Of a stretch of DNA of 64,000 nucleotides, positions 478 through 2,155 are shown one piece after another. The notes under the pieces were generated by a model that saw only the letters and a program-made list of their open reading frames with translations, searched no databases and was not told the DNA's origin. The position numbers and the translations under genes were made by a program. This DNA comes from Escherichia coli (GTDB taxonomy: Bacteria > Pseudomonadota > Gammaproteobacteria > Enterobacterales > Enterobacteriaceae): the NCBI RefSeq assembly GCF_050920415.1, contig NZ_CP169309.1; one strand, 5' to 3'. The first letter of the stretch is position 1. Every line of letters begins with the position of its first letter.

Positions 478-663
478 ACAACGCCGAAGATGTTTTGGCG
501 GATTGAGAGAATTTCAGCTTGGATCCAGAGTCCGAAGGATTTTGCGCTGAGACAAGGCGGCAAATGAAGCGAAGGAAGGAGCATACTGAAGTATGTGACT
601 GATTTTCGCGAATGCAGCCAACGCAGTATCAGCACAAAAGACACAGGACAGAGCACAGGAATT

Positions 664-783
664 TGCCTGGCGGCCGTAGCGCGGTGGTCCCACCTGACCC
701 CATGCCGAACTCAGAAGTGAAACGCCGTAGCGCCGATGGTAGTGTGGGGTCTCCCCATGCGAGAGTAGGGAACTGCCAGGCAT
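664..783 (+). rRNA. rrfD: 5S rRNA (120 nt, canonical sequence)
   Basis: TGCCTGGCGGCCGTAGCGCGGTGGTCCCACCTGACCCCATGCCGAACTCAGAAGTGAAACGCCGTAGCGCCGATGGTAGTGTGGGGTCTCCCCATGCGAGAGTAGGGAACTGCCAGGCAT recognised as E. coli 5S. Confidence 0.95.
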
Positions 784-834
784 CAAATTACGAAGAATGG
801 CACTGACCTTTGAGGCAGTTCACTACTCGATAAG

Positions 835-932
835 AGAGTAGGACAAAAGCGAAAGCTTTTGAACGTTGCGAAGCAACGGCCCGAAGGGTGAATCGCGAAG
901 TGATTCATAAACTGCCAGGCATCAAATTAAGC
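835..932 (+). repeat. 5S-distal spacer repeat (copy 1): ...GAGTAGGACAAA..GAACGTTGCGAAGCAACGGCCCGAAGGGTG..ATAAACTGCCAGGCATCAAATTAAGC
   Basis: Near-duplicate of 1243..1343; both end with a copy of the 5S 3'-terminal motif AACTGCCAG(G/A)CATCAAAT. Confidence 0.7.
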
Positions 933-934
933 GT

Positions 935-1010
935 GCTGATATGGCTCAGTTGGTAGAGCGCACCCTTGGTAAGGGTGAGGTCCCCAGTTCGACTCTGGGT
1001 ATCAGCACCA
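935..1010 (+). tRNA. thrV: tRNA-Thr (anticodon GGT)
   Basis: 76-nt GCTGATATGGCTCAGTTGGTAGAGCGCACCCTTGGTAAGGGTGAGGTCCCCAGTTCGACTCTGGGTATCAGCACCA; cloverleaf with encoded CCA; sits between two 5S genes as in rrnD. Confidence 0.93.
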
Positions 1011-1047
1011 CTTTTTAGGTTAAAGTTCGGCAGATTAGAAAAGAATT

Positions 1048-1167
1048 TGTCTGGCGGCAGTAGCGCGGTGGTCCCACCTGACCCCATGCCGAACTCAGAA
1101 GTGAAACGCCGTAGCGCCGATGGTAGTGTGGGGTCTCCCCATGCGAGAGTAGGGAACTGCCAGACAT
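1048..1167 (+). rRNA. rrfF: 5S rRNA, second copy (variant with 3 substitutions vs copy 1)
   Basis: 120 nt, TGTCTGGCGGCAGTAGCGC...GGGAACTGCCAGACAT; differs from copy 1 at positions 3, 12 and 117. Confidence 0.93.
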
Positions 1168-1177
1168 CAAATAAAAC

Positions 1178-1214
1178 AAAAGGCTCAGTCGGAAGACTGA
1201 GCCTTTTGTTTTAT
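1178..1214 (+). terminator. rrn T1-like rho-independent terminator
   Basis: AAAGGCTCAGTCGGAAGACTGAGCCTTTTGTTTT: GC stem, short loop, T-run. Confidence 0.8.
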
Positions 1215-1242
1215 CTGTTGTTTGTCGGTGAACACTCTCCCG

Positions 1243-1343
1243 AGTAGGACAAATCCGCCGGGAGCGGATTTGAACGTTGCGAAGCAACGGCCCGGAGGGT
1301 GGCGGGCAGGACGCCCGCCATAAACTGCCAGACATCAAATCAA
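1243..1343 (+). repeat. 5S-distal spacer repeat (copy 2), with two small hairpins
   Basis: GAGTAGGACAAATCCGCCGGGAGCGGATTTGAACGTTGCGAAGCAACGGCCCGGAGGGTGGCGGGCAGGACGCCCGCCATAAACTGCCAGACATCAAAT; matches the well-known rrnB T1-T2 region architecture. Confidence 0.7.
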
Positions 1344-1345
1344 GC

Positions 1346-1377
1346 GAAAGGCCATCCGAAAGGATGGCCTTTTTGCG
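1346..1377. terminator. rrn T2-like hairpin terminator (possibly bidirectional with yhdZ)
   Basis: GAAAGGCCATCCGAAAGGATGGCCTTTTTGCG: perfect stem plus T-run; lies between the convergent rrn operon and yhdZ. Confidence 0.75.
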
Positions 1378-1396
1378 TTTCGAATCCATGTACAAT

Positions 1397-2155
1397 TTAA
1401 TGGATAACCTGCGATAAAAATGCCCTCGTACGCTCCGATTTAGGATGCGCAAAAAATTCATCAGGTGTAGCTTGTTCCACTATCTCCCCACGATCCATAA
1501 AAATCACCCGATCAGCGACGGTTCGCGCAAATCCCATCTCGTGCGTTACGCACAACATTGTCATACCCGACTGCGCCAGCCCAATCATCGTATCCAGCAC
1601 TTCTTTTACCATCTCCGGATCGAGCGCCGATGTGGGCTCATCAAACAACATAATTTTCGGCTTCATACACAGCGAGCGCGCAATGGCAACACGTTGCTGC
1701 TGACCACCAGAAATCTGTCCTGGAAACTTCTGGGCATGTTCGGCAATTCTCACCCGCTCAAGGTAATGCATCGCCAGAGCTTCAGCCTCTTTCTTAGGCA
1801 TCTTGCGTACCCAAATCGGTGCCAGGGTACAGTTCTGTAGAACGGTCAGATGAGGGAAGAGATTGAAATGCTGAAAGACCATTCCCACTTCCTGCCTGAC
1901 GCGCTCAATATTGCGGATATCTTCATTAAGTTCGATGCCATCCACCACGATCCGTCCCTGTTGATGTTCTTCCAGATGATTAATACAACGAATGGTTGTC
2001 GATTTACCGGAACCAGAAGGGCCACACAGAACGATCCGTTCTCCCGGTTGCACGGTTAAATTTATATTTTTCAAAACATGGAATTGTCCATACCATTTAT
2101 TGACGTTTTCCAGCGTAATCATCGCGTTAGCAGGTTGCAGTAAAATTTGGCTCAT
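1397..2155 (-). CDS. yhdZ: polar amino-acid ABC transporter ATP-binding protein
   Basis: 252-aa ORF with Walker [13 protein letters not shown] signature LSGGQQQR and Walker B; recognised as YhdZ. Confidence 0.92.

Follow-up and report, generated by a model that had tools for sequence, protein, structure and literature searches.

What is the second of the two 5S rRNA genes that lie at the start of this 64,000-nt stretch of Escherichia coli DNA (hereafter, the window), and how has it come to differ from the first in both partners of a stem pair? The initial annotation, made from the sequence alone, described three differences between the two copies, assigned two of them to paired positions in the terminal helix (helix I) of 5S rRNA, and took the matched change as evidence of a functional gene as opposed to a decaying duplicate.

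Only four RNA genes are detectable by an Rfam scan in the whole window, all at its start, and Rfam, ARAGORN and a terminator scan place them in the order 23S, 5S, tRNA-Thr, 5S, with the terminators T1 and T2 afterwards. On the plus strand, the 3' end of the 23S rRNA gene rrlD, truncated by the window start, occupies positions 1-477 (Rfam RF02541, 520 bits, model positions 2454-2925; 23S annotation in the 100% identical record NZ_CP169399.1) and is followed by a long-form 23S-5S spacer of 186 nt at 478-663 (about 94 nt in K-12; alignment to K-12 and MLI106K2). The first 5S copy, rrfD (664-783), is the canonical E. coli 5S with C3, C12 and G117 and is identical to rrfD of K-12 DH10B. A 151-nt spacer at 784-934 (14 nt in K-12; alignment) separates it from thrV, the gene for tRNA-Thr with anticodon GGU, at 935-1010 (ARAGORN; Rfam tRNA model, 70.7 bits for 935-1007; annotation). 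After the thrV-rrfF spacer (1011-1047) comes the second 5S copy at 1048-1167, in which U3 corresponds to position 1050, A12 to 1059 and A117 to 1164. Downstream on the same strand are the T1 hairpin with its T-run (1171-1214; terminator scan and K-12 alignment) and the remainder of the inter-terminator module, the RrF sRNA of rrnD (1215-1346; identical to the K-12 rrnD trailer; sRNA in PMC8144298). The T2 hairpin (1347-1374, listed without a strand) is common to the convergent yhdZ; the terminator scan called it on the minus strand, and the plus strand continues with TTTTTGCGTTT. On the minus strand at 1397-2155 lies yhdZ, encoding the ATP-binding protein of an amino-acid ABC transporter (annotated so in a 100% identical record; the same neighbor in K-12).

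Because the chromosomal neighbor is yhdZ, the operon is rrnD, and window positions 1048-1167 are rrfF, the second 5S rRNA gene of this E. coli operon. The gene stands right after thrV (GGU) with yhdZ next on the opposite strand, as expected of an rrfF orthologue, and gene order and neighbors are the same in K-12 DH10B. Copy 2 matches DH10B rrfF at 120 of 120 nt, including U3, A12 and A117, and K-12 (rrlD-rrfD-thrV-rrfF) also has the same thrV, the same spacer upstream of rrfF, the same T1/T2 trailer and the same yhdZ. The window differs from K-12 rrnD in its 186-nt 23S-5S spacer, its 151-nt rrfD-thrV spacer and a single A for G in the T1 stem. A megablast search with window positions 480-1400 against 5,426 complete E. 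coli genomes returned one 100% match, strain MFDS1022581, for which the RefSeq annotation gives 23S, 5S, tRNA-Thr and 5S, then yhdZ and yhdY on the opposite strand. Both rrfF and its variant positions are already catalogued; the initial observation is correct yet known. The 5S genes of MG1655 are reported to vary at four positions (Kurylo et al. 2018, PMC6312700), and, judging from the sequences compared here, these are probably 3, 12, 13 and 117, in which case the three differences of copy 2 are among those counted there. The functional study in that work concerns variants of the 16S gene rrsH, and the passages of it that we covered contain nothing on the function of 5S variants. For this genome the matter is of little import, and the annotation of 1048-1167 should read simply 5S rRNA.

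Direct comparison of copy 2 with copy 1 yielded exactly three changes, C3T, C12A and G117A, as first described. The pairing of positions 3 and 117 in helix I was borne out by three lines of evidence, namely the Rfam covariance-model alignment, the minimum free energy (MFE) fold and pair counts. In the Rfam alignment, the outermost modeled pair is a C-G at 666-780 for copy 1 and a U-A at 1050-1164 for copy 2, with no non-canonical flag on either, and pairs 3-117 to 10-110 of copy 2 are aligned free of such flags. The MFE fold of each copy contains a ten-pair stem, 1-10/110-119; whole-molecule MFE folding misses the native three-way junction of 5S rRNA and was used for helix I only, with the Rfam alignment used elsewhere. 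For the counts, the Rfam structure was transferred to E. coli numbering and applied to 53 distinct 5S sequences from many enterobacterial genera. Pair 3-117 was C-G in 39 of these, U-A in 12 and U-G in 2, and was unpaired in none; five of the six pairs changed on both sides in this set belong to helix I. The observed covariation score was matched by 0 of 500 shuffles, and sliding the partner abolished the signal. The replacement of C3-G117 in copy 1 by U3-A117 in copy 2, both Watson-Crick pairs, is a true compensatory change, a clean textbook case for an RNA stem. Position 12 lies in the unpaired loop A, and A12 is found also in the proximal copy of strain MLI106K2; C12A is an ordinary loop A polymorphism, independent of the changes at 3 and 117.

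The gene is intact in other respects as well. Copy 2 is free of indels and is a full-length match to the 5S family RF00001 (1050-1165, model positions 1-120), with all model helices aligned and the helix I pair kept as U-A; at 90.2 bits, it scores 2.6 bits under copy 1 (92.8 bits, 666-781) and far above the gathering score of 38. The gene edges, GAATT|TG and CAT|CAAAT, are shared with copy 1, so that GAATT stands right before the mature 5' end in both, and the flanks are unrelated further out in the two-copy alignment. The 151-nt spacer was considered as a block to transcription of rrfF and was dismissed, as the terminator scan found no terminator-like site between the two 5S copies. From these sequence features we infer that rrfF is a working 5S gene, the product of which would be processed and used in ribosomes.

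Within E. coli, this form of the gene predominates. About 80% of 5,425 complete genomes have the same 198-nt stretch, the query running from the 3' end of thrV through the spacer and rrfF into 5 nt of trailer: of 60 records sampled at regular intervals along the ranked list of 5,463, 48 were 100% identical and 9 more had one mismatch, and band counts for three synthetic variants of the query were consistent with about 80% exact matches. A 65-nt query covering the thrV-rrfF spacer and the first 28 nt of rrfF was matched exactly in 4,936 of the 5,366 E. coli genomes that have it. Records of J53 and of the MG1655 type matched both queries at 100%. A 69-nt query over the rrfF 3' end and T1 was abandoned for counting A117 in favor of the 198-nt thrV-anchored queries, given trailer polymorphism and better matches in rrnB, rrnE and rrnG; since the T1/RrF module is absent in many strains, only 2,501 records have an exact match to the 3' end of rrfF together with T1.

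The remaining strains depart from this form in several ways. Some of those sampled keep U3-A117 and have other changes, C88U in M1/5 and C97U in strain A4; in CU42ET-1, loop A has been converted to C12/U13, with U3 and A117 kept. The rrfF of O157:H7 (Z1834, L010 774-893) has an extra U87A in the loop closing helix IV, and several O157:H7 records fall into the one-mismatch class of the 198-nt query. The combination C3/C12/A117, which leaves a C·A mismatch in helix I, occurs in strain 3045 (L015 774-893), in a set of chicken isolates and in TUM3755, with L137 and L139 (574-693) among the loci that have it, and apparently stems from a conversion covering the 5' end only. At least 14 E. coli genomes are one mismatch away from the canonical query. 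The wobble form U3/A12/G117 is present in E. coli C and some other strains, with L138 among the loci that have it and at most 69 genomes in that neighborhood. A fully canonical C3/C12/G117 gene after the thrV-rrfF spacer was found in 0 of 5,425 E. coli genomes. In Jnd12 (L140), rrfF is deleted: GAATTTGTCT runs into CAAATCAAGC and T2, and only the first five bases of the gene are left; strain CT265 gave a split match resembling that of Jnd12.

These data bear on two deflationary readings of the three differences. One holds that they are sequencing or assembly errors in a repeat region. Ribosomal RNA repeats are indeed error-prone in assemblies, and G117 appears in some laboratory-strain assemblies where close relatives have A117, so that some G117 calls (in BL21 and Origami derivatives) could be polishing artefacts. 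The same three differences, however, recur in thousands of independent complete genomes, K-12 derivatives among them, and in other genera; with the identical sequence in K-12 DH10B and in about 80% of 5,425 genomes, we rejected this reading as scarcely credible. The other reading is that copy 2 is a decaying duplicate in which two independent neutral changes in the stem happen to pair. It can appeal to the redundancy of rrfF, which is one of eight 5S genes and is dispensable, being missing in at least one natural strain (Jnd12), and to the E. coli strains that have C·A at 3-117 with no obvious consequence. Taken by itself, the paired change is a weak argument against decay, although few random events would produce it: when three random substitutions were simulated, both partners of one pair changed and remained Watson-Crick in about 0.4-0.55% of trials. 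The argument becomes strong in combination with the lack of indels and the full Rfam score, the conservation of the rrfF stretch across E. coli, the absence of an unpaired state at 3-117 among the 53 distinct sequences, the same U-A pair in Salmonella, Citrobacter and Enterobacter, and an interior that tracks the proximal copy of each genome (see below). Decay is accordingly very improbable, and a pseudogene status of rrfF was rejected on conservation; the original deduction that the variant is functional was reasonable.

The energies of the alternative pairs suggest how the swap arose. The helix I duplex has a calculated energy of -20.3 kcal/mol with C-G at 3-117, -18.2 with U-A, -17.6 with U·G and -13.1 with C·A; relative to U-A, U·G costs 0.6 kcal/mol and C·A about 5. 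The most likely route leads from C-G through a U·G wobble to U-A. States with U·G exist in nature, in Citrobacter sp. FP75, Pseudocitrobacter and E. coli C, and the wobble intermediate is thus visible in natural strains.

To place the swap beyond E. coli, we used at least 120 stretches from species-representative genomes, collected with the 3' half of thrV as the query, and located the 5S genes flanking the tRNA by blastn and global alignment. This sample is neither exhaustive nor random, many of the assemblies are drafts in which rRNA repeats may be collapsed, and some organism names may be imprecise. Among the matches listed, pair 3-117 was U-A in 28, C-G in 38 and U-G in 1 of 67 distal copies, compared with C-G in 32, U-G in 1 and U-A in none of 33 proximal copies. 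Distal copies with U-A were found, among these matches, in Escherichia coli, E. albertii, Salmonella enterica arizonae, Citrobacter, Enterobacter, Lelliottia, Pluralibacter, Superficieibacter, Silvania, Pseudocitrobacter, Pseudenterobacter, one Hafnia and one Dickeya. Apart from the Hafnia and the Dickeya, the U-A distal copies among the matches listed come mostly from the core Enterobacteriaceae, a distribution that a single origin could explain. The swap to U3-A117 is old; it is restricted to the distal copy and is not special to this genome. In eight other species, the distal and proximal 5S all scored above the Rfam gathering score, the distal within 0.5 bit of the proximal.

Other pairs of helix I have been swapped in the same position of the operon. 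The distal copy, among the matches listed, has U-A at 4-116 in three Serratia (L027, L105, L119); A-U at 2-118 in Yersinia (L072, L092) and in Pectobacterium and Brenneria (L058, L062, L122); A-U at 7-113 in Aeromonas (L033, L043, L050), an Enterobacter and a metagenome-assembled genome; and A-U at 10-110 in another Enterobacter. None of these four swaps was present in any proximal copy among the matches listed. With Aeromonas left aside, a helix I swap was found, among the matches listed, in 38 of 64 distal copies vs 0 of 32 proximal copies (Fisher P = 9e-10, for counts that are not phylogenetically independent). Loci L083, L125 and L131 also belong to those with matched swaps at other helix I pairs. 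In Erwinia rhapontici (L113), three 5S genes surround the tRNA-Thr gene, a single one upstream and a pair at 33 and 308 nt downstream, and all have the same helix I. Our literature search found nothing on the 3-117 swap, its age, its restriction to the distal copy or the recurrence of other helix I swaps there. We consider that the age, the restriction and the recurrent swaps add modestly to what is understood of concerted evolution and do not constitute a new kind of system.

The swap is set into an otherwise homogenized gene. We compared the 32 genomes in which, among the matches listed, both 5S copies are complete. In the interior (positions 11-109), the proximal and distal copies of one genome differ on average at 0.84 positions, compared with 2.98 between proximal copies and 2.35 between distal copies of different species. 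For the 20 nt of helix I, the respective values are 1.06 within a genome, 0.33 between proximal copies and 1.71 between distal copies. This mosaic indicates that the interior of the distal 5S evolves in concert with the proximal copy of the same genome and that helix I does the reverse. Loop A positions 12-14 vary among genera (CGT, TGT, TTT, AGT, GAG, AAG), and in 10 of the 14 genomes that have both copies and a U-A distal gene, among the matches listed, positions 3 and 117 are the sole differences between the two. Conversions among E. coli rrn operons have been reported to be frequent and to homogenize the copies (bioRxiv 10.1101/2020.08.03.235192). The homogenization of the rrfF interior across genera resembles that finding; the earlier analysis scored no conversions inside 5S genes, whereas we observed persistent differences at the ends of the distal 5S. 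A homogenized interior combined with lasting differences at the stem ends could be useful in research on the concerted evolution of rRNA.

Why would the ends escape? The account that we hold to be very probable is that rrfF is an intact gene of rrnD, co-transcribed with 23S, rrfD and thrV, and that its ends are seldom reached by gene conversion. Gene conversion would hold the rrfF interior to the sequence of the seven other 5S genes. Neither position 3 nor position 117 is more than 4 nt from an end of the 120-bp block of homology: similarity beyond the rrfF 5' end, in the spacer after thrV, extends for only 5-8 nt, with that to other 5S loci stopping 5-7 nt ahead of the gene, and the sequence that copy 1 shares past the 3' end is equally short. 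A conversion tract that replaces the interior would seldom span position 3, and a tract extending over both ends would be rarer still. Changes at the ends could then escape homogenization, and since the stem must stay paired, only matched changes would persist. Proximal copies, with long flanking homology to the six other operons, would be held to the common sequence. We infer this edge-of-homology mechanism from the pattern of differences. E. coli fits it, in that conversions of one end were seen (L015, L137 and L139; L138) and conversions of both ends in 0 of 5,425 genomes. The distal 5S may serve as a natural marker of conversion-tract ends in a very short (120 bp) homology block.

Some of the data run contrary to the mechanism. 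Position 12 lies only 9 nt from position 3 and is homogenized with the proximal copy in most genera, so that tracts would need to end within a very narrow interval. The 7-113 and 10-110 swaps sit further from the ends. In the long form of the 3' flank, the T1/RrF trailer closely resembles those of other rrn operons, so that position 117 would have less shielding than position 3 and is nonetheless retained. Selection to keep U-A would yield the same pattern.

Selection could act on the helix I swap by making the stems of the tandem 5S genes less prone to cross-pair within their shared precursor or by marking a 5S species with a distinct role. The 5S gene after tRNA-Thr would, under such a reading, carry a selection-maintained helix I 'barcode' (at 2-118, 3-117, 4-116, 7-113 or 10-110) that never appears in the proximal copy, across Enterobacterales and Aeromonas, the remainder of the gene staying identical to that copy. 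The excess of swaps in distal over proximal copies, spread over five pairs in different lineages including Aeromonas, speaks for it, as do the survival of U-A beside a homogenized position 12 and the lack of a fully canonical rrfF in any of the 5,425 E. coli genomes. The 5' strand of copy 1 would also pair with the 3' strand of copy 2 by 7 kcal/mol more weakly than in the native stem. However, a single swapped pair discriminates weakly, with the reverse cross-pairing losing only 0.6-2.7 kcal/mol, and co-transcriptional folding would be expected to favor local stems already. Moreover, 26 of the 64 distal copies among the matches listed have no swap, strains with U·G, with C·A or with no rrfF exist, and no phenotype is reported in the parts of the literature that we covered. 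We consider maintenance of the swap by selection unlikely, and the same doubt attaches to the barcode as a general feature of these operons; if it were true, the pattern would be new. The preferred account remains an intact rrfF with ends at the edge of homology. In practice, U3/A117 offers an allele-specific handle by which expression of the distal rrnD segment can be measured.

The spacers of this operon are unusual for E. coli, and most of window positions 480-1400 is covered in only 16 of 5,426 E. coli genomes. The best matches to the insert in the 23S-5S spacer came from Salmonella arizonae (82%) and Enterobacter sp. Bisph1 (87%), not from the sampled E. coli loci. The rrfD-thrV spacer (784-934) holds a diverged copy of the inter-terminator (T1-T2) sRNA module, with 81% identity over 78 nt to window positions 1268-1346, and the same spacer is found at 93-95% identity in Pseudocitrobacter faecalis, E. 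albertii and Superficieibacter. The module in the spacer is laid out as GAGTAGGACAAA, a hairpin, TTTGAACGTTGCGAAGCAACGGCCCG, a second hairpin and then a repeat of the 5S tail; in both hairpins, different sequences have been substituted with the pairing intact.

The trailer varies as well. RrF sRNA begins 3 nt past the 5S 3' end and includes T1. The T1 stem is perfect here, with A at 1200 (GGCTCAGTC / GACTGAGCC); a G·U pair takes its place in K-12 and most sampled strains, where the base is G. In many E. coli, T1 and the RrF module are absent, and rrfF is followed directly by CAAATCAAGC and T2 (L011-L015, strains M1/5, A4, MRY15-131, CU42ET-1 and 3045; about 120 nt after locus position 774). 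The difference has the appearance of a deletion between two AACTGCCAGACATCAAAT repeats or, alternatively, of an insertion there in the K-12 form.

An 18-nt repeat of the 5S 3' end plus trailer follows each of the two copies, 139 or 168 nt later (910-927 and 1323-1340). The 5S-tail repeat has been proposed to direct RNase E cleavage of RrB sRNA (PMC8144298). The repeat base equivalent to position 117 matches that of its own gene: the repeat downstream of rrfD has G, and the one downstream of rrfF has A. In E. coli C, A is retained in the 18-nt repeat even though the gene itself carries G117.
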